Below, one piece after another: positions 1 to 28,054 of a stretch of 33,799 nt of DNA. A program made the position numbers and the translations under genes. Source of the stretch: a virus (Duplodnaviria; Heunggongvirae; Uroviricota; Caudoviricetes); the IMG/VR virus record IMGVR_UViG_2537561934_000004; one strand, written 5' to 3'. Position 1 is the first letter of the stretch, and the number at the start of each line of letters is the position of its first letter. The notes under the pieces are model-generated. The model worked only from the letters and a program-made list of their open reading frames with translations, was not told the origin of the DNA and made no database searches.

Positions 1-701
1 TAAACCACGGAACTGGCTTGTGGCATTGTTACAGTTGCCAGTTTGAACCATCCAGCACCACCACTAAAAGACATGGTTGTTGAATTTGTTGTGCCGATAT
101 TACGCAGGAATAGTTTTTTATCGGGAATATCTGCACCGTTCTGGTTTTTCTGTAATGCACCAGAAGCCTGATTTACCGTTTCCTGTAAACCAAGGTTTTG
201 GATAAACAGCGGCTTATTGGGAATATCTGCTCCGTTCCGGTCTTTTGCCAGACGGGCATTGGCATTATCCATCGCAATTTTCACCGCTTTTGCGGTGGCT
301 GCCAGCGTTTCACTGGGGCTGTCAGTGGCACTGGTTAGCTGAACGAGGCCTTTTTTGTTCAGGCTGGCATCCCAGATATCCAGATTTTCACGTGCTGTAC
401 GCTGTGCTGATGCCCCGGCAATTTTAATTTCGCTGAGGTTATTTTTTATCAGCAGCGCGTTATTGCTCATAATGGCTTTAATGGACAGTGCAAGCTGGTT
501 TAATTTTGTTTTATCCGGTTGAATACCGGCTTCTTTCAGCGTGTTTAATAACTCCGCCTGCACAATATTAAACCAGTCCATGCCGGGCCATGTGATAGCA
601 TTATTCCCGTCACCTTCTGAAAACCAGCGAACGATAGCACTACGCTGGGCGGATACGGGCGGCATGACGGTTACGCCGCTGTCGTTATCAATATAAAACA
701 T
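1..701 (-). CDS. S: Tail fibre protein, N-terminal constant part (Mu S-like); continues beyond window start
   Basis: Minus-strand frame open from ATG at 701..699 (overlaps upstream stop as TAATG) to position 1, translated by hand as MFYIDNDSGVTVMPPVSAQRSAIVRWFSEGDGNNAITWPGMDWFNIVQAELLN... It carries the side-tail-fibre motif NKKGLVQLTSATDSPSETLAATAKAVK...NGADIP shared with lambda Stf. It is absent from the ORF track because no stop lies inside the window. Confidence 0.8.
   Translation of the reverse strand, partial: MFYIDNDSGVTVMPPVSAQRSAIVRWFSEGDGNNAITWPGMDWFNIVQAELLNTLKEAGIQPDKTKLNQLALSIKAIMSNNALLIKNNLSEIKIAGASAQRTARENLDIWDASLNKKGLVQLTSATDSPSETLAATAKAVKIAMDNANARLAKDRNGADIPNKPLFIQNLGLQETVNQASGALQKNQNGADIPDKKLFLRNIGTTNSTTMSFSGGAGWFKLATVTMPQASSVV
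180..205. other. gix/hix-like serine-invertase crossover site (26 bp) inside the tail-fibre gene
   Basis: Plus strand reads TTCCTGTAAACC AA GGTTTTGGATAA: two 12-bp imperfect inverted half-sites around a 2-bp core, matching the Gin/Hin/Cin site architecture as I recall it. It lies inside the tail-fibre reading frame, where Mu-type invertible segments begin. Confidence 0.6.
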
Positions 702-1243
702 TAGTTATCTCCGTCATGGTAAACAAATTTATAAATCTGATGCGCGGGTTTATATTTCTCCAGTAAACATTCCAGCGCACCCGATTCATAAACACGTAAC
801 GGCGTCAGAACATTATCCAGCACCGTTGCGTTGCGATAATTTTTAATACCGTAAATATTGACCTGCGTAACCCACTGGCCTTCTGTGGAATCCGTCAGCC
901 TGACGGTAAAACCGTACTGCGCAGCCAGCCATTCATAAAAGCGCCGACTCAGATTGCCGGTCATACGCATTTTATTCGCGGCAGCCCGCCGGCGTTCGGA
1001 CAGGGTGCCGTTTTCGCTGGTACAGTCCGGCAACCCCAGAAATGATTCCCACTCACCCAGATACCAGCGGGATGTGGACGGGAAACGCTCCCGCAGCATT
1101 TGCCGCGCATCATCCGCCGCAGTGGTAATCACGTCGCTGATGGCCTGCGCCAGCGCAGATAATTTGCTGTCGGGGCTTTTATTCCAGGCAAGCCCTGACG
1201 GCAGTAATTGCAGAAAGGCCGTCTGCCAGGGTGTTACAGCCAT
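701..1243 (-). CDS. Tail/baseplate protein (Mu gp48-like)
   Basis: 180-aa ORF immediately upstream of the tail-fibre gene and downstream of the baseplate J-like gene, matching Mu gp48 position and size. Stop overlaps the tail-fibre start. Confidence 0.7.
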   Translation of the reverse strand: MAVTPWQTAFLQLLPSGLAWNKSPDSKLSALAQAISDVITTAADDARQMLRERFPSTSRWYLGEWESFLGLPDCTSENGTLSERRRAAANKMRMTGNLSRRFYEWLAAQYGFTVRLTDSTEGQWVTQVNIYGIKNYRNATVLDNVLTPLRVYESGALECLLEKYKPAHQIYKFVYHDGDN

Positions 1244-2316
1244 TCAATTGTCCCCGGTGTTAACAGTTCCGTATTCTCCGAACGCTGGATGTCTGTCGGG
1301 AAACGCACTTCAAAATCATCCAGACCGGTAACACCTGCCACCGCACGGATAATACGGGAGGGGGCAAGTGCACCGCCCGGCGTCACCTCATTAAAAAACA
1401 TGGTATTAATGGCGTGAGTAATAGCCTGTTTCAGTTCGGCTGTCTTCGGCGATATATAAATCCGTGGATTTACCGGCTTTGCCTTTGGTGCAAATACCGT
1501 GACATTTACACCATCAGGCTGTCCGACAATCAGGCCGGTTATCGGGTCAGTATGACCGGCGATATAATCCGCCACGCGTTCCACATCTGCCGGTTGTGGA
1601 AAAATATTGCTCCGGTTATCCATAACAAACGTCACCCCGACTGTGCCACCGCCTTTCCATGTCGGAAAAGACCAGGCACGGGTAACGCCGCTGACTTCAC
1701 GTGCCCAGCGAACATAATCAAACTGATTACCGCCGAACGGAGGATACTGGACACGATATTCCAGCCGTGACAGCAGCTCCGCTGCACTCTCAATATCAGC
1801 TCCACCGGAAAACCCTTTTACAGTGATGGCATCGGAAACAACACTGGCAACCGGGGTGATCAACGTTAAAAGGGTATTCTCACCGGTATTTCCTGCCTCA
1901 CCGGCAGCCAGTGCGGTAACGGTAATTTCCGTCGTTCCTGCACGGTCAATCACAATGGCATCAGCCAGGCTGTAAACCACACCATCAGCACGCTGCCAGC
2001 GTGTACCGGCAGGAATGGTGGTCGCTGCCGATGTGGTGACAGTCAGCGGGCCGCTGGCGGCTGTCGCCTGTTTGCGGCGCACGCCCCAGAACCGGCAGTG
2101 CTCCAGCAACTCATCTTCATCTGCTGTCGACGGGATAATCTGCCGTCCAACCCATGAAATATGCTCGTGAAAACCGGCAGCAAGGCCCGCCTGAGCATAA
2201 GCAATGGCACTCAGCGTTTTTTCACGGGCCTGAGGCCAGCTACCCGGCAGGCGCTGTTCAATATTCTGTTCTGTACGGGCAATCAGCGATGATAATGTCG
2301 GTGGTGAATAAGCCAT
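1234..2316 (-). CDS. Baseplate J-like protein (Mu gp47-like)
   Basis: 360-aa ORF in the baseplate module; size and position match the Mu baseplate J-family protein. Confidence 0.8.
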   Translation of the reverse strand: MAYSPPTLSSLIARTEQNIEQRLPGSWPQAREKTLSAIAYAQAGLAAGFHEHISWVGRQIIPSTADEDELLEHCRFWGVRRKQATAASGPLTVTTSAATTIPAGTRWQRADGVVYSLADAIVIDRAGTTEITVTALAAGEAGNTGENTLLTLITPVASVVSDAITVKGFSGGADIESAAELLSRLEYRVQYPPFGGNQFDYVRWAREVSGVTRAWSFPTWKGGGTVGVTFVMDNRSNIFPQPADVERVADYIAGHTDPITGLIVGQPDGVNVTVFAPKAKPVNPRIYISPKTAELKQAITHAINTMFFNEVTPGGALAPSRIIRAVAGVTGLDDFEVRFPTDIQRSENTELLTPGTIEWL

Positions 2317-2754
2317 TTAAACCCCGTTAAATGCTGCTTTAAACTCATAAGGAATAACGGAACCATCCGGTAATGTCAGTGCAATGTAGAGGTATAACCA
2401 GCCCTGATGTAACTGTTCCGCTCTGACGTTAATCGCACTCACCCGGCCCGCTGTTTTCAGCCATTCCAGCGCCTCTTCGGCATACCCTCTGGCGCGTTCC
2501 AGCGTATCCGGTGTGGCTTTTTCACGTGATAACAGCCACAACCGCGAACCGATGGGGCGGTCGCGGTAACTGTCACCCCACCATCCACGGCGATCATCTG
2601 AACCATCCGGCAGCGTGTCAGAATCCAGCGCGCGCCGGTCGGTAAACAGGGAGATTGTCACATCGGTCGTCAGACTGTCGTCGGTCAGCATATCAATGCC
2701 ATCCTGTGCAATATCGCCGCGTCCGTTCGTCCAGATAATGGCTAAATCGGTCAT
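2317..2754 (-). CDS. Baseplate protein (Mu gp46-like)
   Basis: 145-aa ORF abutting the baseplate J-like gene; position and size as in Mu. Confidence 0.7.
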   Translation of the reverse strand: MTDLAIIWTNGRGDIAQDGIDMLTDDSLTTDVTISLFTDRRALDSDTLPDGSDDRRGWWGDSYRDRPIGSRLWLLSREKATPDTLERARGYAEEALEWLKTAGRVSAINVRAEQLHQGWLYLYIALTLPDGSVIPYEFKAAFNGV

Positions 2755-3344
2755 TGCATCGGCCCTGTGGTTCCGCCGCTGTCGCCACGGTGGATATGCT
2801 TATCCGTCGATTTGCCATTGATGATGGCATCCGGGGCAGTAATATTGCTGTCGAACTGGCTTTTACCTTTAACGCCCAGACCTTTCTGGATCTCAACGTC
2901 GCCGGTAAACGTGGTTCTGGGTGTATCAACGGTCATGCTTTCATCAGCGTAAATCTCAACCGTTTTACAGGTAATGATGCAGCGCCCGTCCTTTGTCAGC
3001 CTGATACGATGCCCCTCGTGGTGGTAAATGCCTGCATCACCCGGTTCAAGATTTGTCGGGCGGTAGCGGCGGTCTTCCACCACAACGGCAATCCCCTGAT
3101 CACGTTGTGCACCCACACAGGCAATCAGCGCCTCTGCGCCCGGCAGAGGAACGCTGAAATGCCCGTAATTTTGCAGGCGCTCCACTTCATCAGATTCCTC
3201 ATCATCCAGCAGACCGACCTGCAGGTTCTGAACCTTTCGCCCGTCGTTAATCACGTTAACAACGGCACGCGCAAGCATCAGACGCACACGACGCATCAGC
3301 GGTGTCAGCAGGCGGTTCATGGCGGAATCATTTACTCTTTCCAC
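2751..3344 (-). CDS. Baseplate assembly/spike protein V-like (Mu gp45-like)
   Basis: 197-aa ORF between the hub gene and the gp46-like gene; ATGA-type overlap with neighbours. Confidence 0.7.
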   Translation of the reverse strand: MERVNDSAMNRLLTPLMRRVRLMLARAVVNVINDGRKVQNLQVGLLDDEESDEVERLQNYGHFSVPLPGAEALIACVGAQRDQGIAVVVEDRRYRPTNLEPGDAGIYHHEGHRIRLTKDGRCIITCKTVEIYADESMTVDTPRTTFTGDVEIQKGLGVKGKSQFDSNITAPDAIINGKSTDKHIHRGDSGGTTGPMQ

Positions 3345-4465
3345 GGCGGCGTTTTCTCCGGGTGTCTGCGATAATAATCTTCAACCAGCGCATCAACGCC
3401 ATCATTACCATCCCCTCTGGATTTGCGGTCGCTTTCAACCGGCACCAGAAAGCCTTCGCGTGGTGCAAGGCTGACGCGGGTTTTCAGCCCGTCCTGGTCA
3501 TTCAGTATCAGGGTGACTTTGCTGACCAGTAATTCCGTGGTTTTGATGGCATATTTCGAGGCATCAATAGTGACCAGCAGGTTTGGCATCCAGAGTTGCC
3601 CGTCCTTGCGAGTCCATCCGTCAATTTCAGCCTCAAAGGTGATGGATTTTGCCAGTCTGCGGCGTTGCTCACGCAGGGCGCGGGCCTGTGCATCCTTCGC
3701 CGTAATTTTGCTGTCGGCAATGATGATCATCGGTCTGTAACGGGTTACATCACTGTCAGTGGCGGTCCCTTTCCGGGAGACGATACTTTTCGCATCAATA
3801 TCATCACCCTCAGCGCCGTTTGCGCGGGCATAACCCTTGACAATGTATTCGCTGAACCGGTCACGGAAATCTTCGTCAAAATCCACCGTCAGCAGATTTT
3901 TCCCGAGGATCAGCTCATCAGTGACCGTACTGGCAGCCCGGCTGAATACCAGCTCTCCGGCGGCATTGCTGGTCATCAGTACACCACGTGCGCGGGAGGC
4001 CCGCACCAGCGCTTCGTAAACCGTTTCTGAATGGTCAAGCGTAAAAGACGGAAACGACGCTGCGCTTTCCTTGTCTGACAGCTCCCAGCGAACGGTAACG
4101 CCATAAGGGGCGCACAGGTCACGCGCAATCTGCTCCAGTGTGCGGTTTTTCCACTGTCCGCCACTGTAAACGGCAGCACAGTCAATCAGGTCAGCCGTTT
4201 TGTCACGTCCGGCGACAGTGATTTTCATACTGTCAGCGGTCATCTGGCGTCGCCGTGAATCGATATAACCGGTGCAGACAATCTGCCCCCCGATTTCGAG
4301 CGTGAACTTCTTCCCCGGAGCCAGCCCGGATAAATCCGTGCCCGGTGGCACGTTCACCCCCAGCTCAAAATATCCGGCTACGGATTCAATCGAGCGGGTG
4401 ACAGAGACTGACGTCCAGCCGGTAAAAAGCCTGCCATCCGTTCGCAGCGTGACGGTATTACTCAT
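3332..4465 (-). CDS. P: Baseplate hub protein (Mu P / gp44-like)
   Basis: 377-aa ORF directly downstream of the DNA circularization gene, as in Mu (N then P). Confidence 0.75.
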
Positions 4466-5945
4466 TAATCACCTCAATACTGACACCACCGGGAACAAAC
4501 AACGGGTTGCTGATACCGTTCCTGCGGGCCAGCCGTTGCCAGTTCCGGCTGTTTCCTGTGTAACGGTACAGGGCCACCATTGCAGGCATCGTCTCCGGCA
4601 GACGGTGCGTTTCACTACCCGCCAGTTGCAGCCCGCGTTTTTCCAGGTCGGCAACAACCAGCAGACGCAGTTGCGTAAGCTGAACGCTGTCTGTCGAAAA
4701 GCCCTGCTCAGATGCCGTCAGAATGACGGTATCCAGCGCAGCCCCCAGCATGGCGGCTGTTTTTCCGATATCGGACACACTTTCAAATACCGGGGGCGTG
4801 GCTGTACCACTGTCTGAAAAGGATACCTGTGAAAAGCCGCCGTCCGGGGTTATGGCAGTTAACTGTAACTGTCCCTGTGTGACGGTAGCAGATGTGCTGC
4901 TGGCCCCGCTGGCTGTGCCGGTTGTGGTGGACGGGGCATCCAGTACAGGTGCACGGGCGGCATTATCCATCCGGCGACTGAAATCCAGTGCCGCAGTCAG
5001 TGCCTGGCTGGCAGCTTCTGCCCGGTATGTCTGCGCCGCTGCCAGCATGACGTAGTTCAGTGTGGCAATATTTTTTTCTGCAACCGGACTGTTGTACGAG
5101 GTTGTGATTGCCCCCTGTCTGCCTGCGGTGGCGGCATGGCGACGTTCGAACCGCTGCGCCAGACGGTTCCAGGTGGAAAATGCTGTCCGGGTATCGCATA
5201 ACGATGAAACGCCGGACAGCGCCCCCATCAGCGAGGAGGCCAGCATGGCAGGCTGGTTAATCAGGCCGGTCACAGAGCCTTTCATCGCAGAAAGCGATCC
5301 CATCAGACCGCTGACAGTCTGCGTAACCCCCAGATTGTCCACCGCATCACTGATATCATCGATGACACCGGTTACAGCTTCCATCACGGCGGTTGCCGCC
5401 GCAGTGCCATCTTTTACGGTCTGCCAGACAGAGGACAGCGTATCTCCCAGAGAACCGGTTACAGCAACGGACTGTGCCGGTACGGCTACACTGGTGTCTG
5501 TCTCTGCGTCCGGGGCAGTATCCTGCAACGACGGATAAACGGTAACGGTGAACGCGTAATAATTCAGTTCATCCGCTTTAGTGCGGCATTCCCATGAATC
5601 CACCATGACGGCCACAGTGCCGAAATCAGGATGTACCAGCTCACCGCTACCCGGAGCATCAAGAGCATCCATCAGCGCACCCGCTTCATCTCTGGCAGTC
5701 TCTGCGTTGCTGTTCAGAATGCAGATGCTGAATGTGCGGGAGCGAAGCTTTTTCCCCAGGTCGTTGACACCGCCGGTATCACGTAACGGGTACTCACGTT
5801 TAACCAGACGACGTCCGCCAGCCTGTTTTTGCTCCTCGATGACGAGAAACGGCACGTTACGGAACGTGCCTTTGCCGGTTGTTTTCCTGCCTCCACCGGT
5901 TTTATCCCGGACAGCATTAACGGCATTTAAAGCATCTTCAAACAT
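4458..5945 (-). CDS. N: DNA circularization protein N (Mu gp43-like)
   Basis: 495-aa ORF immediately downstream of the tape measure gene; size and position match Mu N. Confidence 0.8.
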
Positions 5946-5949
5946 GGTT

Positions 5950-8025
5950 TTACCAGCCTGTAATGTAGTTATCGCCCGCGTAAATATTCAGCCCCATACC
6001 ATCCTCGGTGACGCGGGAACTGGTCAGACGTAACCCCTCGCCAAGTTCGACGCGCAGCGAGGCTTCCGCATTCACTTTTTGCTCCTGCGGTTCCTTATCC
6101 GTGGCCGTCCACTTCTGATACAGGTCGGTTACAAAACCGCCCAGATACTCCCCGGCGACACTGCCCAGCGTGGCACCGGCAACCGTACCCAGCGGTCCGG
6201 CAAGGCTGCCAACGGCACCGCCGAGCCATGCACCGGCTGTACTGCCAATTGCGCCTGCTTTTTCATGGGTTGACGCCTGCTCATCCATCAGGACGGGGGC
6301 AAGCTGGAGTGCCCCCATTACCGGGCCACCCAGACGTGACAACGCACGCCCCGCGCCTTTCCCCATCCAGCCCAGCGCCCCGGCACCTTTTGTCACAACC
6401 CGACCGATCGCACTGCCTGCAAGTTTGTTTCCGATACCGGAAAACCACCCGCCAGCGGCACGCCCGGCATCAGCCAGCTTTCCGACCGCTCCCGTAACCA
6501 GTTGCCCGGCAGCACTGCCTGCAAGCCTGCTCAGAAGACCGGATTTACCGGGTAAAGGTAATGGTGCAGGCCGTGCCGTTACCGGTACGCCGGGTGGGGG
6601 TAATGCCAGAACAGGGCGTGGTGCAGGTAATGCCAGCGGCTGTGGCCCGGACAGCAATAACGGCTGGCGGGGTAACAGGGGCGTCATGCCTTTGCCTTTC
6701 CGGGTGCGACCACCACGGCCACCGCTTCCGTAACCGCCGAACCCGTGAGGCCAGTTAGTGACAAACACACGCTGAATGCCGATACCCTGCAACAGCGTCT
6801 CAGACGTCATGGCATCCGGGACCGGCAGACCTGCCTGCCCACGTTTGCGGTTTCGCATCCAGCGCCACATACGACGCCCGGTTTTAAACGGATAACTGGC
6901 AACCTGCCATGAGGGTTTTGCCACGGCCCAGCCTGCTCTCAGGGCTTTATTGGCAAGCCAGACAGACACCAGAACAGCAGCCAGTTTTTTCAGGCTGACA
7001 ATATTCTGGTCAACCCATGCCAGCGCATCTTTACCCGGTTTCAGCCAGCGCCATAATTCCTGCGCCGCGATTTTTACCTTTCTGAACGTGGTCAGGAATT
7101 TCTGACCAATGTTTTCTGCCAGTGCGTCCAGCTCCCCGGATTTATCCGCCGCATCGTGCCAGTTAAGCACCCGGCGCATCTCGTTCTTGATTTCTTCAAA
7201 GGGGCCGCTGTTTGCCACCTTCGTGCGAAACTCAAGCAGGTTGCCCTCCATCTGGGCCATCATCCCGTCCCAGGAGTTCATGGCAGCCGCCTGTGCGCCT
7301 TCTGACTGCTCCAGCAGGGTCCGGAATACCGTCAGAATGGCTTTCTTGCCCAGCTTGCCTTTTTCACCCAGCTTACGGATTTTTTTCTCATCCTTACCCG
7401 TTGCATCTGCCAGCACCTTGTAAACGTTGATACCGTAACCGGTCAGCAGGTTGGCGTCCGCCGCCGTGATTTGCTGGCGGGCAAACATCTGTTTGAACTG
7501 TAACGAAGCCCCCTGCGCGGTGGGTAAATCCCAGCCATGCATCGCGCCCTGATTCTGTAGCATGGTGATGAACTGTTTTACCTGGGCGTCAGTCATGCCA
7601 AACGCCGTTGATGTGCGGATTTCCTGCAGAACGCCGCCCAGCCCCCAGGTGGTTTCTTTTGCGTTCTGCTTCGCCCACGCCATCATGGCCTGTGCTCTGG
7701 CCTTATCGCCGTGATACAGCGAGTTCATGGCGATAATCTGCTGCTCACGCTGGGCGGCGGCACCAATAAACAGTTTATTGGCGGTGTAACCCACGCCAGC
7801 GATACCCAGCGCCCCGGCTGACAGCATTCGGAATGTACGGGTTGACAGTGAACCCATTCTGTCAATGGCACCAGAAACGCGCACAACCTCCATACGCAGG
7901 GCACGAAGGGAACTTTGTCCGCTACGGGACAGGGCGTTTATCTGGTTCGAATACTCGCGGGAACGCCGGGAAAGATTGCCATTAAGATCAATAATGACAG
8001 ACGCCTTTAAGCGTTTCCCGGTCAT
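5950..8025 (-). CDS. Tail tape measure protein
   Basis: 691-aa ORF between tail tube/chaperone and N. Predicted helical N-terminal two-thirds and a Gly/Ala/Pro-rich low-complexity C-terminal third. Start has an AGGAAA Shine-Dalgarno. Confidence 0.85.
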
Positions 8026-8169
8026 AGAGATTTCCTGATTTAACGGTGATATTGAGAGAGGGTTTTAGCCTGCTGGCAGTGCCGGAAAAAGCGGGACAGC
8101 GGGAGAGACAAGGCCCATTCCGGGCCACTTTTCAGAATAACGCCAATCGCTGTCGCCGCTTTCTCAATA

Positions 8170-8604
8170 TCATTCCGGCACCGCAGCCACTCGCCCCCGT
8201 TCTTGCGTCAGCGATGCCGCCACAGCCATGTCGTGCATCTCTGTGGCCAGCGACAGACGCTGGAAGTCATCGACGGACAGCTTGCGCATCAGCGCCAGCG
8301 ATAACGGGCCTTTGATGCAGCCCACGCTGGCAATCTGTCGGCGCAGCATTTCCAGTCCCATCCGGGACGGGGAACTGACCAGCACCGGGCCTTCCTTGCT
8401 CATTACCAGCTTTTCAGCCGCCGCCTGGGCATCAATCAGATCGCCTGCGGTCAGTTCACGCAGTGTCACGTCATACTGCATTTCAGTCTCGTCACCGGTG
8501 CCGAACGCCAGGCCGTCTTTCAGTTTCAGGCCACCGGACTGAAGCTCAGCCACAATACTGTCACGCAGTTCCTGTGCTTCAGGACTTAAATTCATTTCGT
8601 CCAT
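8170..8604 (-). CDS. Tail assembly chaperone-like protein (Mu gp41-like)
   Basis: 144-aa acidic ORF between tail tube and tape measure genes, the conserved chaperone position. Confidence 0.6.
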   Translation of the reverse strand: MDEMNLSPEAQELRDSIVAELQSGGLKLKDGLAFGTGDETEMQYDVTLRELTAGDLIDAQAAAEKLVMSKEGPVLVSSPSRMGLEMLRRQIASVGCIKGPLSLALMRKLSVDDFQRLSLATEMHDMAVAASLTQERGRVAAVPE

Positions 8605-8613
8605 TGTTTCCCC

Positions 8614-8970
8614 TTATGCAATGCGTTTGCTTTTTTTTGCCGTCAGTACCAGCGAAATTTCGCCGCCGTCGTTTTTCGGTTCATCCGCCTGCCAGGCATT
8701 CGCCAGCATCCAGGTTTCACCGGTATCAGCCTGGAATTCGACGGTGATGTTTTCCCAGTCGATAATTTCATCCAGCCCGATGGGACCGCCCCCCGGAATT
8801 TTGCATTCCACTTTTGCGGCACGTGGTTTACCTTTCCAGCCATAAACCCGCGAGCCGGTCACTTCTTCACGGGTGGTGCCGGAAGGCGTGAAGGAGGCAC
8901 CTTCCATTGATTCAAGCTCCATGCCATTGACACGGATGAACGCCACCCCCTGACGCTGATTTCCAGCCAT
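8614..8970 (-). CDS. M: Tail tube protein (Mu M-like)
   Basis: 118-aa ORF directly downstream of the sheath gene; size matches Mu tube protein. Confidence 0.8.
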   Translation of the reverse strand: MAGNQRQGVAFIRVNGMELESMEGASFTPSGTTREEVTGSRVYGWKGKPRAAKVECKIPGGGPIGLDEIIDWENITVEFQADTGETWMLANAWQADEPKNDGGEISLVLTAKKSKRIA

Positions 8971-8979
8971 AAATGCTCC

Positions 8980-10479
8980 TTACAGAATGAACTGAACTTG
9001 TGCCGCGAAAATGCGGAACTGGTTAATCAGATTCGGGCCGCACAGCACATCAAGACGGTCTTTGTCGTCCTTGTTACGTGCCACATACAGCTCCTCTTTG
9101 AACGTGTCGAAATCCTCGACCAGTCCGGCGTTTTCCCATTCTTCAAACAGTGCCAGCAGCTCCGTTTTGATCACGGATGGCGTCACCACGGCCTGACCGG
9201 TGGCAAAGCGGGTGCCATCACTTGCCAGCTTGTGGTTCGGGAATTTCTGCGTGATGCGGGTTCGCAGCGAATAACGCAGATAACTCAGCGTGGCGATGGT
9301 ATTCACGTTCAGATAAGACGGATCGCTGTCACCGTACTTGTTCGTGCGGTACATCGTGATCATGCGTTCAATCTGCATTTCACCACCATCATTCACGTTA
9401 AACGTGGAGATGCCGTCAAACAGCAGCGCATTACGTTCTGACCAGGTGAAACGATCCCCCACCGCAGGCGGCATTCTTCCGGGCAACGTCAGCGTCTGGA
9501 GTGGACGCGCCGGGTCGATGGAAAGCGCCTGGCTGGCAACGGCACACAGGGTGGCGGCGTACAGATATGACGGTTCCGGTGCACCGGCAATCCCCATACA
9601 GGAAATCAGATGGTCATTACGTCTGACACCAAACGTGGAAATATCCCCATACGTGCCGGACAGCACTGTCACGGCAAAGCCATCAGCCTGACTGACCGGT
9701 CCCCAGCGTTCCTGCAATTCAGTGCGTAACAGATTCAGGTTCGGTTCATCGGTATAGGGCATCACAATATATTTGTATTGCAGATCGCCCATTCCCGCGA
9801 TACTTGCGCTGATATCCGGGTTGATGTATTTCCGGGATTCGGCTTTGAATGCCGTGATAATCCCGTAAGGGGTGGTTTCACCCGCGTAATAGTTCCAGCG
9901 CACATCCACGGCAGATAATGCACCCGTAAATTTTGCAGTCAGAACTATATCTGTAGCGCCGGCATCATCCGGCGTGGTTGAGAGCAATACTGCCTTCACC
10001 GGCAAATCAGGATGACCGTTGATTCGGTCAGTCAGCAGGCCAGCCAGCTTCGATCCCTTGGTACCTGCTGCGACGGATACCGCCAGTCGCTGACCGGCAA
10101 TGTAAGTCACAAGCGAGCCGTTTTCGGTTGCCGTTCCTGACAGTGTGATTAAACCGACAGTAGTTTTAGAGATAGTATTACCGGGGTTTTTCGCCTGCGG
10201 AATACACCACAGCTCCGCCACGCGGTTAGCTTTCAGGAATGCATCTGCCATCAGTGCCAGCATGGAACCCTGACCAAACGCCGCACTGGCCTGTGAGCCG
10301 GAACGGATACGGACAGGCACGTCTGGTGCCGCACTGGCCCCCTTATTGCTTTGCCCGAACATCAGCACGCGCTGACGGGGGGCCGGTGTTCCGCTGACGG
10401 CATTACTGTTATCAAATTCGATATACGCCAGAGGAACGCGAACATCTGGCGGGATCGCGTTAAATGAAATATCGCTCAT
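8980..10479 (-). CDS. L: Contractile tail sheath protein (Mu L-like)
   Basis: 499-aa ORF followed by the tube gene, the sheath-tube order of contractile tails; size matches Mu L. Confidence 0.85.
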
Positions 10480-10485
10480 TTCGAT

Positions 10486-10716
10486 TTACTCCGTTTTTTT
10501 CAGCGCAGCGTCGGTATCATCCGCCGTGTTTTCGGTGCTCCCGACTTCAACCACATCAGTGTTTTCGGTGCTCCCGACTTCAACCACATCACCGGCTACA
10601 AGGCGACGTATCCAGAAACTGTTACGGGGCTTTTCTTCTCCCTCAGGCGCCAGTAATTCCATCGTGAGCGGGTCACGGATGGTTTTTCCCTCTGCGGGTT
10701 TAATTTTCAGCATCAT
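10486..10716 (-). CDS. Small virion-module protein (Mu gp38-like) containing an 11-aa tandem repeat
   Basis: 76-aa ORF upstream of the sheath gene; contains DVVEVGSTENT twice, encoded by a perfect 33-bp tandem duplication. Confidence 0.6.
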   Translation of the reverse strand: MMLKIKPAEGKTIRDPLTMELLAPEGEEKPRNSFWIRRLVAGDVVEVGSTENTDVVEVGSTENTADDTDAALKKTE

Positions 10717-11248
10717 TATCCTTTTCCTGATTCACATTGATATGTGCGGCAAATTCCGGGGTTTCGGCCGGGAGTTTCCAGGTCTGCCAGTGACGCTCGT
10801 AATCATCCAGCGAATCCATGTCCACCACGGACGGCAGCGGGGTAGTGCCACTCAACAGAACGCCGTAAAGCACCACGCCGGCATTGATACGGTTGTCGTC
10901 ACAAAGATTTCTGACCTGCGTCAGTCTCATCCCGGTGGTCTGGCCAAACGTCTGACCGTTAACACCGGCAATCAGTCGCTCCACAATCTGATAAATACCG
11001 GGCCGGTTTACCGGTTCCCCGTTCAGCAACTCCGCCACGACAAAAAATGCCCAGCGACTTTCAACTTCCCGACGCGTACGCCCCTCACCACAGCCCATCC
11101 ATGCCAGAAATACCGATGGCGGGGCCAGAAAGAGACGGTGTACATCCTCGTTAGTCCATGTGCCGGTAAGGGGTTCCACCTGCCGCAGGGTTGCCCCAAA
11201 CAACTCACGAACGCGCGCCAGCAGTGCGGCTTCGGTTTCTTCCAGCAT
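10700..11248 (-). CDS. Mu gp37 (K)-like tail completion protein
   Basis: 182-aa ORF in the head-tail joining block; start overlaps the stop of the upstream gene. Confidence 0.7.
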   Translation of the reverse strand: MLEETEAALLARVRELFGATLRQVEPLTGTWTNEDVHRLFLAPPSVFLAWMGCGEGRTRREVESRWAFFVVAELLNGEPVNRPGIYQIVERLIAGVNGQTFGQTTGMRLTQVRNLCDDNRINAGVVLYGVLLSGTTPLPSVVDMDSLDDYERHWQTWKLPAETPEFAAHINVNQEKDNDAEN

Positions 11249-11673
11249 CAGATAAACCCCTTCTGTTTTCGTGAAAAAACAGGTGGATCAGACTGAATCT
11301 GCACAAGATCCTCTCCCTCCGGAGAGGCTGCCGTCCTGCTTTCCACACCCGGATCTGTTTTGCCATCACGTACCTGTTCCAGCCAGCGCACCGTGTCCCT
11401 GTAAGTTGCGGTGATCTGCTCGGTGGGTTGTGATTCATTCAGATAAAACCAGGCCACCACGCAACACTGCCGTTTCAGCAGTGAGGGGACGACGGTAAGC
11501 GGCAGAACAAAGCGCGCGGCGAGATAGCCATCAATAAAGGCCGAGGCATCTGCCAGTGCCTGTTCTGCCACGGCATCATCCGGCTGCCCGTCCGCTGTTT
11601 TAGGGCGGGTGAGAATATCCAGCCGCGTACGTGTATAGCGGGCGCACAGGTCATTTACCGTCGCGTAATTCAT
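11248..11673 (-). CDS. Mu gp36 (J)-like head completion protein
   Basis: 141-aa ORF, translationally coupled (ATGA) to the upstream gene. Confidence 0.7.
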   Translation of the reverse strand: MNYATVNDLCARYTRTRLDILTRPKTADGQPDDAVAEQALADASAFIDGYLAARFVLPLTVVPSLLKRQCCVVAWFYLNESQPTEQITATYRDTVRWLEQVRDGKTDPGVESRTAASPEGEDLVQIQSDPPVFSRKQKGFI

Positions 11674-12080
11674 GCATCCGCCTCAGCCAGCGCCGCTTTG
11701 ATTTGCGCACTGCTCACCGGTTCCCCCAGCGCCGCACTGACGGCTTTCACTTTGGGTTCTCCCCCTGCGGTAAAGTGTTCCGGGTTTGCCTTATCCAGAC
11801 CGGCAAGGGTCGCACGGATACGGGCGTTCAGATCGCCCACACCCAGAACGTCCAGCCCCCCAGCCTCAGCGAGCGTTTCTGCTGACGATGCAGATACCAC
11901 AGACAGCACGCTGTCGGCACGAATGATCGCCAGTTGTTCTTCGGTGACTTCCACGGTGTTTTCGCCACGTGTAAAGGCGATTCCGGCGCGGCGGTAGACC
12001 GGACGAAGGCATTTAATAATCGCCGTGCAAGTGATGCGAGAAGTGTCCAGCCGTTGTGAATTAAGCGAAGTCCCTGACAT
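11670..12080 (-). CDS. Mu gp35-like virion protein
   Basis: 136-aa ORF directly downstream of the major head gene; AAGGAGG Shine-Dalgarno upstream. Confidence 0.6.
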   Translation of the reverse strand: MSGTSLNSQRLDTSRITCTAIIKCLRPVYRRAGIAFTRGENTVEVTEEQLAIIRADSVLSVVSASSAETLAEAGGLDVLGVGDLNARIRATLAGLDKANPEHFTAGGEPKVKAVSAALGEPVSSAQIKAALAEADA

Positions 12081-12114
12081 AACACATGCTCCTCCTTTTC
12101 CTTTATATCAGGTT

Positions 12115-12138
12115 AAAAGGCGGTCTGAACCGCCTTTT
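12115..12138 (-). terminator. Stem-loop immediately downstream of the major head gene (possible attenuator)
   Basis: AAAAGGCGG-TCTGAA-CCGCCTTTT: 9-bp GC-rich stem, with a T-run on the minus-strand transcript, located 9 nt after the head gene stop. Confidence 0.4.
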
Positions 12139-12146
12139 AATGACGG

Positions 12147-13064
12147 TTACAGGTAGTCAGCGACAACCAGTTGCAGCTTGCCCTTCATCTCGTTGGAGAC
12201 GGTGGTATTGCCATCCGCGAACAGTTCACGGTTAAGCAGTTGCTCTGCGGCTTTTTCCAGCCCGACCGGTACAACGATATGCGTCGGCTTCAGGCCCAGC
12301 TTCTTACCGCCATCACCTTCAAAAGAGCGCATCAGTTGCCAGCCCTTCCAGAGGTTATCCAGCGTCAGATCGCCTTTTACCGCGACAGCCATCTGCCAGA
12401 AGCCGTAACCGGCAGCACGCCGGGCGCTGGCACCAAACAGGAACTCGTTATCCATAAAAACGTGGTCGTCATCGATACGGGTACGTGCGACCAGTTCGGG
12501 TTTGCGGCGCTCCTGGAAAATCAGCGGTTTGACTGCGCGGGAGCAGTCCAGCAGATAGAACGGCAGACCACTGAAGCTGTCCTGTTCAACGATGTTAGAG
12601 GTATTCTTTACGTCGCCCGTGCCGTCCACATTCGGATATACCGGATGCTCCTTGTCGAAGAAGTTCTGACCGTCATAGCAGTGCTGGGTAAAGCCATCTT
12701 TCAGAAGTTTAAAAATCAGCTCATCCGGCTGAACTGCCGCAGAACGCCCCATCTCCTGAAAAATCGGCGCATAAATACCCAGATTGTCATCCTCGAAGTC
12801 ATCACGGGAAATACCCACGGTGCCTTCAAACGTTTTATTGGCGATGGAGTAGCCATGCGCTTGCATTTGCTGAATGGTTCGCTTACCCACCCATTCTTTC
12901 AGGGTCGGGAATTTACCCAGCCAGCCATAGGTATTGCTGCGGGTGGAAGAGTTCACCGCCATTGCAATTCTGCTGTACTGCGACGGGGCGTCTTCAAGAC
13001 CGCCCTGAAAATCCTTACGCCAGGAGGTCATCAGGGCTTTAATGGATGCCGGGGTGACAATCAT
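12147..13064 (-). CDS. T: Major head subunit (Mu T-like)
   Basis: 305-aa ORF directly downstream of the protease/scaffold gene (ATGA overlap); size matches Mu T. Confidence 0.85.
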   Translation of the reverse strand: MIVTPASIKALMTSWRKDFQGGLEDAPSQYSRIAMAVNSSTRSNTYGWLGKFPTLKEWVGKRTIQQMQAHGYSIANKTFEGTVGISRDDFEDDNLGIYAPIFQEMGRSAAVQPDELIFKLLKDGFTQHCYDGQNFFDKEHPVYPNVDGTGDVKNTSNIVEQDSFSGLPFYLLDCSRAVKPLIFQERRKPELVARTRIDDDHVFMDNEFLFGASARRAAGYGFWQMAVAVKGDLTLDNLWKGWQLMRSFEGDGGKKLGLKPTHIVVPVGLEKAAEQLLNRELFADGNTTVSNEMKGKLQLVVADYL

Positions 13065-14146
13065 TTTTCTTGTTCCTGTTTCATTTTCAGATACTCAGCC
13101 TCAGTAATGCCGAGCGCCTTCACTGCTGCCTGTTCATCAGCAGACAGCACCGCCACCGCCGGTTTTTCCTGTGACGGTTTTTTCGCTGTGGTGGTCTGCA
13201 TGGCAGATAACGCAGCGATGGGCTGTTTTTCCTCAAGCTGTGCCGACAGTGCCGCCACGCCAATCTGACCGCCAAGCTGTTCCAGGTAAGTGCGTTCGCT
13301 TTTGAAAATGCGGCCTTCCTGTTCCGCCTTGTCCAGAACGGCGCTCAGGCTGGCTGCGGCGCTTTGTGCAGTCGCCTGTGCCAGTTCATCACGCAGGGCG
13401 TTGTAGCTTTCCACCGGGACGTATTTCGTCAGGTCAACGGCGGCTTTCTGTGCCTTTTCCAGTTCGGCGGATAACGACGCCACTTTTCCGGCATCTGTTT
13501 CGAGTGCATCAAGCGCACTCAGGGCCGCACTGGCCTGTTCATCGGTGATGTCTGCATTTTCGGGGACCGTCACTCCAAGACGCGCAAGCAGCTTGCGCAG
13601 CGTTTCATTCATGGGTTTGTTCTCCTGTTGAAGGATGTCGGGAAGGTCTGCCGCCAGTGCGGTCAGCTTTTTCATGCCGGTGGCACCGGGGTCATTGGTC
13701 AGCGCAGCAAGGCGGATTTGCAGCACCGCACCGGTGGCGGTGTCATACGGAAAAACCGCAGAGAGATAACCAAATTCGCCGTCATCGATGCGCTGCTGCG
13801 CCGCCGCCGTCCAGCGTGGGTGGATAAATAATCCTTCACCTTCACGCCACTGCATTTCATCGGCGTTAAACCAGCCAGCCGCGACGAGTTGTTCCGGGGG
13901 TAATCCTTTGTCCTTACGTAGCTGGTTATGCTCGTAATCAATCAGTACGTCCTGGTTGAGCGCGCGAACGCCTTCAACCAGACGCCCGGCAATCTCACCG
14001 TCGATGAACCACCCCTGACCACCTGTCACATCAAACGGGCGACCATCACGGGCACTGAAATGACCGGCAGGCAATAGCTGGCACCAGCCGTCATCGTCAA
14101 TGGACAGCGCACTCAGTGCGGCAATGCCAATCGCGTGTTTTTTCAT
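13061..14146 (-). CDS. I: Prohead protease/scaffold protein (Mu I-like)
   Basis: 361-aa ORF with a globular N-terminal half and an Ala/Gln/Glu-rich predicted coiled-coil C-terminal half, as expected for a protease-scaffold fusion. Confidence 0.85.
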   Translation of the reverse strand: MKKHAIGIAALSALSIDDDGWCQLLPAGHFSARDGRPFDVTGGQGWFIDGEIAGRLVEGVRALNQDVLIDYEHNQLRKDKGLPPEQLVAAGWFNADEMQWREGEGLFIHPRWTAAAQQRIDDGEFGYLSAVFPYDTATGAVLQIRLAALTNDPGATGMKKLTALAADLPDILQQENKPMNETLRKLLARLGVTVPENADITDEQASAALSALDALETDAGKVASLSAELEKAQKAAVDLTKYVPVESYNALRDELAQATAQSAAASLSAVLDKAEQEGRIFKSERTYLEQLGGQIGVAALSAQLEEKQPIAALSAMQTTTAKKPSQEKPAVAVLSADEQAAVKALGITEAEYLKMKQEQEK

Positions 14147-14342
14147 GTCCTGCTGCTCATCATGGTTTGTGAGCAGTCAGTTTGCGGGAGGTGCGGGAAA
14201 ATCTGGGGTTATGCTATTTGAGTACTGGAGAAAGAAAGTGGAAGGAAGATAAAACGGGATTCATACACCGTTAAATACCGGTTTAAAAATCCCGTGGCGC
14301 GTTTTAAAAAATCTGTGCAGCTGATTTTATGCCTGATTCTGT
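14147..14342. promoter_or_regulatory. G-I intergenic region: predicted late promoter (P_I) and candidate central strong gyrase site
   Basis: 196-bp non-coding gap, the largest in the late region, about 18 kb from the left end, where Mu carries its central gyrase site between G and I. No motif was confirmed. Confidence 0.4.
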
Positions 14343-23969: not shown

Positions 23970-23999
23970 TTGCTCACCTCTCATATTAAGGAATGAGAT

Positions 24000-24416
24000 A
24001 TGAAAATTGATTATGACGAGATAGCCAGAATATTTGATGTTTTTCTGGAGGCCGACACCGCATTCATTCGACTGGAAGATGTCGGCTGGGAGCGTTCTCA
24101 GCGGCACAGCGACAGCCATCAGAAGCTGGTTTTCCATCTTCTGTTGCTGGTTGAAAATGGTTTTATCAGCAACAGATATCTGGAAACAGGCACCGCAAAA
24201 AGCATTGGTCTCACCCCAACAAGCCTCGGATATTCATATTCAGGCACCAGTGTCAGACTTACACAAGATGGTCATGATTTTGCGAAAGCACTACATCAAA
24301 AACCCATTCTTGAGCGCATAAAACAGGACCTTGCCGACGCCCCGATGACGCTCGTAACAGACGTCGGCAAACAGTGGTTAACCTCGTTTCTTAAAAAGAA
24401 ACTCGGGATTGAATAG
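24000..24416 (+). CDS. Hypothetical protein (138 aa) on the strand opposite to the early operon
   Basis: ATG at 24000 preceded by AAGGAA 8 nt upstream; no internal stops. Its 3' end converges on and overlaps the 24378..24689 gene by 39 nt. No family recognised. Confidence 0.6.
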   Translation: MKIDYDEIARIFDVFLEADTAFIRLEDVGWERSQRHSDSHQKLVFHLLLLVENGFISNRYLETGTAKSIGLTPTSLGYSYSGTSVRLTQDGHDFAKALHQKPILERIKQDLADAPMTLVTDVGKQWLTSFLKKKLGIE

Positions 24417-24689
24417 TTCCCGGTTCATACGTTGCAGCACATCAAGGGCGGCGACAGCCGCCACTTTATCGTTACCATCAGCAATAGTGCGGAGATTTTC
24501 AATAATCCAGTGAGGACTCAGTGACTCAGCAATAATGCCAAACCGGTACGCCATGACTTCATCAATAGCTTTTTCATGAGACGGCTCATATACAAAATTC
24601 ACAAAGTCATGCACTTCTTTTTTCGGCAAACCACCGGCAATCAGCAGGGCGGCAAGCTCTTCTGATTTTGAAAATACACCATTATTCAT
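24378..24689 (-). CDS. Hypothetical early protein (about 103 aa)
   Basis: The ORF-track start at 24704 is a GTG; the first ATG is 24689 (MNNGVFSKSEELAALLIAGG...), preceded by GAAGGTGAG and abutting the upstream stop. Confidence 0.5.
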   Translation of the reverse strand: MNNGVFSKSEELAALLIAGGLPKKEVHDFVNFVYEPSHEKAIDEVMAYRFGIIAESLSPHWIIENLRTIADGNDKVAAVAALDVLQRMNRELFNPEFLFKKRG

Positions 24690-24690
24690 A

Positions 24691-25449
24691 TCACTCACCT
24701 TCACAATTCATGCACGCCGTGTCATCGCCCATATCGCAGTGGTTGCATTTCTGCCCACCACAATGAGGGCACTCTTTCAGATATTCAGGGTTTTCATTAC
24801 CGCAGGTCGGGCATTCCTGTTTCACCGTGGTGAATGTCCCCAGCCACGAATACGAATTTTCACCGACTGTCTTTTTCCCCGTTATTTCTGAATCAGAACT
24901 AATACAGTGTTTTTCAACCCATGCCACACGTGCTGAATTCAGGTGGCATCTGGCCAATTTGCTTTCGTTTCTGTAATGTTTGCTGTCCCGGTTAAATGGC
25001 AATTTCTCATTCAGCCCTGCTGAGATAAAGTCCGCATGTAATTGTTCTAATGCGGCTTCACTGTCTGCACCGGTTGATTCAAAATAATCGTAAGCATTGG
25101 CACATAATCCGGCAGCCCGGGTAAATACATCATCGCCCGTCTCCATTGCCCCATTCTTTAACCATCGGTTGTAGGCTGTATAAAAACTATAAAGTTGCTT
25201 TCTGATACAGGTAGTGGCAGTTCCGCCATTAACTGACGCTGGCGTAACATAGCCAGCTCTGCATAAAGCAGAACGAAGTATATCCAGAACCTGCCAGGCA
25301 TCTTCTCCTTCAATCACGCTACAGTTTTTGTACACCAGGACGTCCCGGCCACAACTTTTATCAATACCCCAGTCTTCAAATTTCACAACCAGCCTCCTGC
25401 ACCACACCCGGTGCTGATGAAAAATCAATGATGAGATAACGCAGTACAT
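24691..25449 (-). CDS. Hypothetical early protein with a C-terminal four-CxxC cluster
   Basis: C-terminus CPTCGNENPEYLKECPHCGGQKCNHCDMGDDTACMNCEGE. The ATG at 25449 overlaps the upstream gene by 74 nt; a GTG at 25386 has an AGGAGG 6 nt upstream and is the more likely start (231 aa). Confidence 0.6.
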   Translation of the reverse strand: MYCVISSLIFHQHRVWCRRLVVKFEDWGIDKSCGRDVLVYKNCSVIEGEDAWQVLDILRSALCRAGYVTPASVNGGTATTCIRKQLYSFYTAYNRWLKNGAMETGDDVFTRAAGLCANAYDYFESTGADSEAALEQLHADFISAGLNEKLPFNRDSKHYRNESKLARCHLNSARVAWVEKHCISSDSEITGKKTVGENSYSWLGTFTTVKQECPTCGNENPEYLKECPHCGGQKCNHCDMGDDTACMNCEGE

Positions 25450-25915
25450 GGTCGGTGATATTCCAGGCGCTGGAACTGCAAATAAACCGCCCCAGCCGGA
25501 TATCGATATAAGCCATCACAAAACGGGGCATTCCCTGTTTGCACATCTCGTCATCCACTTCTGCAACGATGTGAACGGACTCACAGGTCAGTACGCCTGT
25601 CGCAAACTCTTTTGCCAGTGCGGGGATGGTATTACCTTCCACCCAGGGTAATGAGCGACGCCAGTTGCACCACACCGCATCATCAACAGCAGGCTGCTCA
25701 GTTGCGTTTCGTCTTACCGGCGGCGTCTGACGCGGGCGCGGAACGTCATAAAATCCGTTGCATTCGGTGAGCACTCCGGCATCAACCGCATCACGCAGGA
25801 AATACACCATTGCGGAGGGTGGCATCTGCATTTTTTCAGCCAGAACCCCGCAGGTCAGGCGTCCGTAAGCCCGTAATAATGTGCTGACACCATTCAGAAT
25901 TTTTGCATCAACCAT
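25376..25915 (-). CDS. Hypothetical early protein with a possible N-terminal winged-helix domain
   Basis: 179-aa ORF with GAGGAA Shine-Dalgarno; the helix-turn-helix call on residues ~1-55 (LAEKMQMPPSAMVYFLRDAVDAGVL) is a visual impression only; Cys/Trp-rich C-terminal domain of unknown function. Confidence 0.6.
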   Translation of the reverse strand: MVDAKILNGVSTLLRAYGRLTCGVLAEKMQMPPSAMVYFLRDAVDAGVLTECNGFYDVPRPRQTPPVRRNATEQPAVDDAVWCNWRRSLPWVEGNTIPALAKEFATGVLTCESVHIVAEVDDEMCKQGMPRFVMAYIDIRLGRFICSSSAWNITDHVLRYLIIDFSSAPGVVQEAGCEI

Positions 25916-26013
25916 GTTTTATTCCTCAGTAATCTGTTTCAGGCGCGAGCAATCCCCTGACGCATCGCGCCATAATTAAAAGAATGTGAATTAATTAAAT
26001 ATTAATGGTGGTA

Positions 26014-26538
26014 TTAAATACCGGCTTCCTGTTCAAACGGAATAATGGAAAAATCTTCAATTCCCGATTTAACCGTAATTCCGGCAACACCTGCGACGGC
26101 TTTTGGTTCCAGTAAAATCGCCTCCTTGTTGATTTCCTGCTTCGTGCGAATAAAGCGTTGCAGGCCAAGACGCTCCAGCGTTTCCATCACTGCATCCATA
26201 CCACGAATACTTACTGATGGTGGACGGACCCGCCACGATACATCACCGGTGACAAGATTCGCCGTCTTCACTTTGCCGCCGTTCGTCAGTTCGTCGCGGT
26301 TCGCTTCACACCATCCCTGAACGCCTTTTGAAAGGGTTTCAATATCGGTTTTAATCGGTGCAATCCGGGCCGCAAATTTCTCCGTAATTTCCGCGATGGC
26401 ATCATTCATTTCCGTTTCCAGACGTGATGCTTCGCGCTGTAAATCCCCGATGCGTTTAATATCGGTAATCACCGCATCGCGGTTTTGTGGCACATAAGCC
26501 GCTGCGGCACTCTTGATACGTTTTGCTGGTTTAGCCAT
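26014..26538 (-). CDS. gam: Host-nuclease inhibitor Gam (DNA end-binding)
   Basis: 174-aa ORF of Mu Gam length in the Mu gam position; the sequence MAKPAKRIKSAAAAYVPQNRD... matches Mu Gam as I recall it. Confidence 0.9.
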   Translation of the reverse strand: MAKPAKRIKSAAAAYVPQNRDAVITDIKRIGDLQREASRLETEMNDAIAEITEKFAARIAPIKTDIETLSKGVQGWCEANRDELTNGGKVKTANLVTGDVSWRVRPPSVSIRGMDAVMETLERLGLQRFIRTKQEINKEAILLEPKAVAGVAGITVKSGIEDFSIIPFEQEAGI

Positions 26539-26557
26539 AAATTAAAGCTCCTGTTAA

Positions 26558-26857
26558 TTAATATCCGCTGTATACAATGCTGGATACAGCTCGATTGCTT
26601 AATTCCATCTTTCGGGCAATGACATGAATATCCAGCCCTTCTTTATAAAGTTCACGACATAAATATTTGTCGTGTTCACTGATTCGGTATACACACAATG
26701 ATATTCCGTGCCTTCTGGCATGTGCCCGGAGGGCGGTTGTGGCGACTTTCAGTTTTTCCGCCATTTCTTCAACGGTCATTTTCCCGACGTTGGCTTCGAT
26801 AAATTCCCGGTCTTCGCGTGACCAGCGCTTACGATTACACTTCATGTCAGCCACCAT
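26558..26857 (-). CDS. Small early protein with two helix-turn-helix-like segments
   Basis: 99-aa ORF between B and gam; segments WSREDREFIEANVGKMTVEEMAEKLKV and ISEHDKYLCRELYKEGLDIHVIARKMELS look like HTH repeats. Confidence 0.55.
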   Translation of the reverse strand: MVADMKCNRKRWSREDREFIEANVGKMTVEEMAEKLKVATTALRAHARRHGISLCVYRISEHDKYLCRELYKEGLDIHVIARKMELSNRAVSSIVYSGY

Positions 26858-27277
26858 TCAGTACAGCAGAGGCTCGCGCAGTGATGCCGGAATATGCCGC
26901 AGCGATAACTGAACCGCTTTCAGGGCAAGCGAGGAATAACAGCAGCGCGCCCAGCCTTTTGCCATTAACCGGTAATCGCGCCAGATACGCTGCCACATTT
27001 CACGGGCCTCAGGGTCTGATGCGCAGATGTATTCCCGGTCCATGACGTACTCCCATAAATCCACGTTGAACGCACCGCCAAATGCAATGGCGCGGGATAT
27101 GCTTTCGCCGCAATAACGCGCACAAATGCTGTAATGGTCGAAAGCAATCAGGTAAGTCTTTTCACCACAATCATCAACTTTCCGGGCGCAAATAAACTCG
27201 CGTAATTCACCACCGTTGTTATTGCGTTCCTGAATTCGGATTAATGCCTGAATTTCATTTCGGATTTTGACGTTCAT
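26858..27277 (-). CDS. Hypothetical early protein (139 aa)
   Basis: ORF abutting the downstream gene within the B-gam block; no recognised motif. Confidence 0.55.
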   Translation of the reverse strand: MNVKIRNEIQALIRIQERNNNGGELREFICARKVDDCGEKTYLIAFDHYSICARYCGESISRAIAFGGAFNVDLWEYVMDREYICASDPEAREMWQRIWRDYRLMAKGWARCCYSSLALKAVQLSLRHIPASLREPLLY

Positions 27278-27297
27278 TGTCAGCGTTCCTTTGCGAA

Positions 27298-27567
27298 TTA
27301 ATGTCTGGCTGTATTCGGGTTATAGCTGAATAATTCCCCCTCGGCTTCCAGCCCAAGCTCCCTGGCTGATTTCAACAACTCCTCGGTCGCTTTTTTAATG
27401 ATTTCAGGAGCCATGCTCTTGATGATGCCTGCCATTACATCATGTGGCCCGGTCTGGTCCTCAGGTGAGGATTCTTCCAGTCGCACATTCATATTTACGG
27501 CAAAACCTCCATTTTCCTGAAACTCAATATTTCTTGTATTGTTAAATTCAAAGATTACTTTTGCCAT
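27298..27567 (-). CDS. Hypothetical early protein (89 aa), acidic
   Basis: ORF in the B-gam block; no recognised motif. Confidence 0.55.
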   Translation of the reverse strand: MAKVIFEFNNTRNIEFQENGGFAVNMNVRLEESSPEDQTGPHDVMAGIIKSMAPEIIKKATEELLKSARELGLEAEGELFSYNPNTARH

Positions 27568-27587
27568 TTTTCTTCTCCTTATTGATT

Positions 27588-27833: not shown

Positions 27834-28039
27834 CCATTAAGACGGGCCGTCCATACAGAACGGGCCACCCCGGACTTATGCTCCATAATCCTGACCGCGT
27901 TTTTTACCAGTTCCACCGGTGGGTAAGTGATTTCAAGAATCGGACGCGCCACGCCGAGATATGATTCATTTACATGACTCCCGCGCGCCTGTAACCAGTT
28001 CTGCGCATCCGTTGCCATTTTTATATTTCGGGCCATCAT
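27812..28039 (-). CDS. Kil-like small protein (first gene after B)
   Basis: 75-aa ORF at the position Mu kil occupies; assignment is by position and size only. Confidence 0.5.
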
Positions 28040-28054
28040 AATTTCTTCTCCTTC

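Follow-up and report, generated by a model that had tools for sequence, protein, structure and literature searches.

The window, a stretch of 33,799 nucleotides of DNA that was analysed over its whole length (IMG/VR record IMGVR_UViG_2537561934_000004), opens inside a tail-fibre gene that runs off its left edge, and the locus raises the question of whether that edge falls at an arbitrary point in an ordinary gene or within the invertible part of a segment that switches host range. An earlier note, made from the sequence alone, had placed a 26-bp site with the architecture of the Gin/Hin/Cin crossover sites at 180 to 205 in the open tail-fibre frame. The position proved exact, and we assign a probability of about 0.93 to the reading that this sequence is the left crossover site, gixL, of the invertible G segment in a D108/Mu-like prophage carried in E. 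coli yafC. Because the partner site, the alternative fibre genes and the invertase of this genome all lie outside the window, what can be said of them rests on relatives; the window's own genome would be expected to hold a partner site and may still invert its segment. The features discussed below are collected in Table 1.

Table 1. Coordinates, strands and supporting observations for the features of the window (a dot marks a feature without strand)
Feature	Position	Strand	Support or remark
Sv (non-Mu type), first 59 codons, aa 175–233	1..179	-	identity to JCKP02 S; divergence from Mu S
89-bp inverted repeat at the segment ends, left arm	117..205	.	arms in JCKP02, SE11 and L010
Inner coding repeat KNQNGADIPDKKLF	118..149	-	within the inverted repeat, at the start of the variable part
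gixL, Gin/Din-family crossover site	180..205	.	two imperfect 12-bp inverted half-sites around a 2-bp core
Central crossover dinucleotide AA (GA in Mu)	192..193	.	alignment and core survey
Sc, constant part of S, aa 1–166	206..701	-	96% identity to Mu S; Phage_fiber_2
Outer coding repeat KDRNGADIPNKPLF	214..245	-	in Sc
ORF	24000–24416	+	opposite to the phage genes; in the non-D108 region
ORF	24378–24704	-	in the non-D108 region
ORF, Cys-rich C-terminus	24691–25449	-	in the non-D108 region

The identity of the element as a whole is clear from its gene content and its ends. Window positions 167–1300 are 98.7% identical to phage Mu, and SfMu, D108 and Mu-like Yersinia phages match the same region at 98%; the minus-strand genes here correspond to Mu gp47, gp48 (Pfam Phage_Mu_Gp48) and the tail-fibre gene S (Pfam Phage_fiber_2). 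Collinearity with D108 extends from position 165 to the D108 left end (D108 position 1), which falls at window 32298, and positions 32298–33799 lie beyond the prophage in E. coli DNA that is 100% identical to K-12 and contains the 3′ part of yafC (the gene interrupted by the prophage), dkgB and a tRNA-Asp gene (33669–33745, minus strand). Its gene order is that of Mu, its ends are of the Mu type and it interrupts a host gene (yafC), so that the window is a D108/Mu-like prophage (Muvirus) lying on the minus strand in E. coli yafC. The same yafC junction was found in none of the complete E. coli genomes; it is shared, together with the right end, by a clonal relative, IMG/VR contig 2534681761_000009 (L019, L021), which starts at window 170. 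That contig is listed at 22,755 bp yet holds window 170–1731 and 25799–33799, and so about 10.9 kb of prophage is missing from it relative to the window, or the contig is stored differently. The next K-12 feature after the tRNA-Asp gene is a 5S rRNA gene, and the window ends just short of the corresponding point; probably, then, the window is a whole draft contig that stops at an rRNA repeat on the right and within the G segment on the left. As a separate observation, positions 23970–25388, in the semi-essential early region, are alone in the prophage in having almost no D108 counterpart. A Pfam scan of the three open reading frames of region 24000–25449 gave no match, and all three fall in PHROGs families of unknown function.

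The sequence at 180–205, TTCCTGTAAACCAAGGTTTTGGATAA, agrees at 25 of its 26 bases with the gixL and gixR sites of phage Mu, both of which read TTCCTGTAAACC GA GGTTTTGGATAA; the sequence used for this comparison is the same as the published one (PMC3241671 Table 3). The sole difference is base 192, the first base of the central dinucleotide, where the window has AA for GA. In match coordinates, the ‘G-segment boundary’ annotated in the Mu record (record position 31966) maps to window base 192, at the centre of the site. The site thus has the 26-bp, 12-2-12 organization of the published gix, hix and cix sites (PMC3241671 Table 3), and it is situated in a tail-fibre reading frame at the point where a constant N-terminal part meets a variable C-terminal part, as is characteristic of the Din family. 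It is single-copy in the 33.8-kb window even when 3 mismatches are allowed, its inner core AAACCNNGGTTT occurs nowhere else in the window, and no chance match was obtained in 100 dinucleotide-preserving shuffles (0 expected). The partner site and the invertase had been predicted to lie outside the window, and within it we find neither a second gix copy, at up to 3 mismatches, nor a Gin homologue (best tblastn E = 4.9). The idea that the two might be located elsewhere in the window through circular permutation was rejected, given that neither was found and that the right end of the window is host DNA. A candidate pseudo-gix at 84–109, 96 nt upstream of the site in the second protein repeat, was likewise set aside, as it bears no resemblance to the site.

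The reading frame that contains the site runs on the minus strand from an ATG at 701, whose codon overlaps the gp48 stop codon, to base 3, a stop-free stretch of 233 codons that continues off the window edge, with a Pfam Phage_fiber_2 match at aa 113–153 (E = 2.5e-18). The site itself encodes F166-IQNLGLQ-E174. Relative to Mu S, the product is 96% identical over aa 1–186 and unrelated beyond, the break falling 12 aa past the site, whereas with the S protein (507 aa) of the JCKP02 prophage identity is 97% over the full 233 aa and 100% over aa 175–233. At the DNA level, homology to Mu-like phages and prophages is shared above the site and stops at window 167, 165, 140, 137, 124 or 117, and, approached from the other side, 12 IMG/VR contigs share only window 1–205 or 1–213. 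Judged from these alignments, a loss of homology at the site from both sides reads as the signature of a cassette boundary. The proposal that the sequence below the site is the variable part of the fibre gene is borne out by the end of identity to Mu S and by the DNA breaks at 117–167. In the window, Sc is joined to the non-Mu type of Sv, as it is in the JCKP02 and SE11 prophages, and positions 1–179 represent about 6% of a segment of roughly 3 kb that extends to the left of the window.

The remainder of such a segment can be followed in full-length relatives. Two complete E. coli genomes match window 1–1300, JCKP02 at 98.4% and SE11 at 97.8%, and in both an inverted partner site lies 2.9 kb to the left, at the outer end of an 89-bp inverted repeat. 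The segment that is enclosed carries S′v, U′ and U, and beyond it follow a 197-aa recombinase (Resolvase and HTH_7), com and mom; Mu and D108 have the same layout. Taken over JCKP02, SE11, Mu, D108 and the sibling contig L010, the partner site is 2.9–3.0 kb away, and a serine recombinase gene adjoins gixR in Mu, D108, JCKP02, SE11 and E. coli W. Two Caudo_TAP chaperone genes lie on opposite strands of the segment in L010 and JCKP02, each beside a fibre C-terminus. The earlier note had anticipated an inverted site about 3 kb to the left together with a serine recombinase gene, and this is the arrangement that the relatives JCKP02 and SE11 display, at 2.9 kb and outside the window itself.

The inverted repeat that bounds the segment is longer in this lineage than in Mu. 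The arms corresponding to window 117–205 are 96% complementary and 2,914 nt apart in JCKP02, and 92% complementary and 2,895 nt apart in SE11, and in L010 the other arm matches window 124–205 at 96.3%; in L002 the arms lie at 4114–4202 and 7117–7205. The repeat measures 89 bp in JCKP02, SE11 and L010, in contrast to about 34–41 bp in Mu, because Sv and S′v share their first ~28 codons. Two direct repeats, 27-bp copies according to the earlier note (123..149 and 219..246) and described there as flanking the site, are real, and the peptides given for them (NGADIPDKKLF and NGADIPNKPLF) are right; their span is longer (32 nt), and they are not flanking signals of the site but part of a protein repeat. 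The copies at 118–149 and 214–245 are 88% identical and offset by 96 nt, which is exactly 32 codons and in frame, and they belong to two units of a 32-aa protein repeat (...LAKDRNGADIPNKPLFIQNLGLQETV... and ...LQKNQNGADIPDKKLFLRNIGTTNST...). Since the inner copy lies inside the 89-bp inverted repeat, Sv and S′v both begin with it.

Both orientations of the segment are documented among relatives, which is where the expectation that they should exist has been confirmed. The E. coli W RefSeq assemblies NC_017635 and NC_017664 contain the same Mu-like prophage at the same coordinates with the segment inverted: 3,084 bp that are 100% identical (1999–5082 in L016 and 1955–5038 in L017), with the two chaperone proteins trading places. 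One of the E. coli W assemblies annotates the unexpressed fibre part as a pseudogene. Closer to the window, IMG/VR contig 2531839130_000014 (L018) is 99.986% identical to window 124–14319, with 2 mismatches in 14.2 kb, and past the inverted repeat it runs into the S′v end (L018 14197–14260; L010 232–295) rather than the Sv end. In L010, JCKP02 and SE11 the Sv and S′v ends are the two ends of one segment; the window and L018 therefore represent two states of the switch in the same phage. In L010 the 5′ end of gin appears on both sides of the G segment (1–238 and 3134–3369), a fold-back that reflects either the presence of both orientations in the culture that was sequenced or a misassembly through the inverted repeat. 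An assembler working with small k could produce it, as the arms are identical for about 41–47 nt next to the site.

These observations bear on two readings in which the crossover site, or its surroundings, would mean something else. The 26-bp match might be a by-product of the conserved fibre peptide FIQNLGLQE with no role in recombination, the window edge then being an arbitrary cut in a non-invertible gene; the site does lie in coding sequence, and the protein flanking it is conserved among many tail fibres. Peptide conservation of this kind is hard to reconcile, however, with homology to dozens of relatives that breaks at or next to the site in both directions, with an inverted 26-bp copy that bounds a 3-kb segment beside a serine recombinase gene in every full-length relative, and with a segment that is physically inverted between assemblies, so that this reading is already contradicted and we consider it scarcely credible. 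Almost as improbable is the suggestion that the direct repeats at 118–149 and 214–245 act as auxiliary signals for recombination (additional binding sites for recombinase or Fis, for instance) on either side of the crossover site. Their distances from the site (30 nt on the left, 8 nt on the right) and their 88% identity would fit such a role, but their spacing is exactly 32 codons, in frame, and both translate to one peptide motif, K-x-x-NGADIP-x-K-x-LF. Moreover, Mu Sv lacks the inner copy (homology ends at 167) and the Mu G segment is nonetheless the textbook invertible segment; because Mu inverts without the inner copy, the repeats are not needed for recombination. The Fis-dependent recombinational enhancer (sis) of this system is, by established knowledge of Gin/Hin and by PMC3798978, placed in the 5′ part of gin, outside the window, and not beside gixL. 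We accordingly dismiss the repeats as recombination signals and regard them as an in-frame peptide repeat, with 180–205 as the gixL site between constant and variable parts of S.

The one base in which this gixL departs from Mu deserves attention since it falls in the overlap at which strands are exchanged. Base 192 is A in the window and G in Mu, D108, SfMu, JCKP02, SE11 and E. coli W. It occupies the third position of the Leu170 codon, and the change from CTC to CTT is synonymous in the fibre frame while altering the 2-bp overlap of strand exchange. The Hin, Cin, Pin and Min sites all have an AA core, and only gix and bix have GA (PMC3241671). Partner sites need matching 2-bp overhangs (PMC1904230, PMC5175349, PMC3985619), and a single mismatched core base stops religation after one exchange, yielding knots and no inversion (PMC1904230). 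The exact sequence of window 150–235, and likewise an AA core in a Mu-like gixL context, is absent from 5,426 complete E. coli genomes and 50,697 phage records, and no AA-core site was found in GTDB species representatives; the AA variant is present in three IMG/VR contigs (two genomes) and in one contig of a metagenome collection. Among the siblings, gixL has AA in L018 and L019, and gixR has AA in L010 and, independently, in L023, the site reading TTATCTAAAACCTTGGTTTACAGGAA in both. Both sites have therefore changed together in this lineage and their cores still match, as they do in all nine of the site pairs surveyed (L001–L015), eight of which are GA/GA and one, L010, AA/AA. That GA has naturally become AA at both sites is a modest example from the field of the requirement for a shared core.

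The right end of the lineage, seen in L010 and independently in L023, is made up of gixR, a gin gene truncated to 171 aa, a 655-bp deletion, D108 gene 56 and the right end of the phage. The prophage copy in L010 and L023 is at an insertion site other than that of the window prophage. Through the deletion com and the 5′ end of mom are lost as well, and gin, interrupted after aa 161, continues directly into the 3′ part of mom (L010 3277–4120; L023 38–1674), with the junction GCACAAGGAATCCCCCGCACTCTGAATCACGGGCC; the independent contig L023 shows that both this deletion and the gin-gixR-S′v junction are real. In the truncated gin, HTH_7 is matched over 25 of its 45 positions and the recognition helix is gone. 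From established knowledge of the DNA-binding domain of Hin and Gin, this product, without helices 2 and 3, would not be expected to bind gix, and because L010 and L023 carry it, the phage’s own invertase may be dead.

It follows that 180–205 could be a genuine gix site that is now frozen, either through truncation or loss of the phage’s own gin or through cores of gixL (AA) and gixR that are no longer shared. The 171-aa gin with its incomplete HTH_7 in L010 and L023 is consistent with such an end state, as are the rarity of the AA core in the 5,426 E. coli genomes, the phage collection and the GTDB species representatives (0 in each) and the block to religation that a single core mismatch imposes (PMC1904230). 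A loss of shared cores, on the other hand, does not fit siblings that have AA at gixL (L018, L019) as well as at gixR (L010, L023). Inversion has also been recent, for only 2 bases in 14.2 kb separate the window from L018, and yet Sc is joined to opposite segment ends in the two. The invertase of another prophage could act in trans on the site, given that Gin, Hin and their sites are interchangeable (PMC1904230), and a gix-like site also occurs on another contig (L004) of the genome to which L018 belongs. A frozen site is for these reasons unlikely, though it is an alternative that should be kept in view. A more specific scenario, which we regard as doubtful, makes the G segment an orphan switch that is operated in trans by a different resident invertase of the Din family, the cores of the lineage having changed from GA to AA and gin having been lost in the siblings. 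The incompatibility of GA and AA normally keeps the Mu segment from productive recombination with AA-core segments. If the orphan scenario were true, the core change would remove this incompatibility with the AA-core segments of co-resident prophages, and a route would open to cassette exchange or rearrangements between phages.

Under the preferred reading, a gixL that still serves as one boundary of a switch, the sequence of events can be proposed from what is established for Gin and Hin. Dimers of the serine invertase would bind at gixL and at gixR, which lies in inverted orientation some 3 kb away, and the two sites would synapse at a Fis-bound enhancer. Both would be cut with 2-nt staggers at the central dinucleotide, which corresponds to window 192–193, and a 180-degree rotation followed by religation would leave the segment flipped. 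Sc (aa 1 to about 170) would in this way be fused either to Sv, with chaperone U, or to S′v, with chaperone U′, and the swap of the fibre end would change receptor specificity and so host range. The invertase for the window’s segment may act in trans, a step that is proposed because sibling assemblies carry the truncated gin.

A practical consequence concerns the annotation of draft genomes. In three independent assemblies of what is essentially one prophage, the contig ends lie within about 180 nt of gixL: inside the site by 179 nt in the window and by 10 nt in L019, and 64 nt beyond the inverted repeat in L018. Such breaks fit failure of an assembler at the inverted repeat, mixed orientations, or fibre sequence common to other prophages. 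With draft assemblies ending at or close to gixL, fibre genes that look truncated are often to be expected for Mu-like prophages in data of this kind.

Switching of tail fibres and host range by a Mu-type G segment is ordinary and already known; for more than 40 years the Mu G segment has served as the textbook host-range switch by site-specific inversion, and the window adds little that is new beyond a correct annotation. Phage Mu (AF083977) is of the same genus, has the gene order gp47, gp48, S, and carries its site at the same codon of S, with 25 of 26 bases in common and an Sc that is 96% identical; S′v, U′ and U of the sibling segment are about 94% identical to those of Mu. The window departs from Mu in its AA rather than GA core, in an Sv unrelated to Mu Sv beyond aa 186, and in belonging to a lineage whose inverted repeat is 89 bp rather than about 34–41 bp. 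D108 is a close match for the early region and left end, which are D108-type at 98–99% identity (apart from the stretch at 23970–25388 described above), and JCKP02 and SE11 have the same Sv type and the same 89-bp inverted repeat. All three nevertheless differ from the window in having GA cores, and they retain an intact 197-aa gin in contrast to the truncated gin of the siblings closest to the window. Further afield, hix/Hin of Salmonella, cix/Cin of P1, pix/Pin of e14, mix/Min of p15B and bix/PinB of Shigella boydii share the 12-2-12 site and the same mechanism, and hix, cix, pix and mix share the AA core of the window site (PMC3241671 Table 3). The half-sites of the window are of the gix/bix type, unlike those of hix, cix and pix, and the sibling gixR, TTCCTGTAAACC AA GGTTTTAGATAA, equals bixR of Shigella boydii but for the core. 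In contrast to a flagellar switch, a plasmid prophage or a defective lambdoid element, the element in the window is a transposable Mu-like phage.
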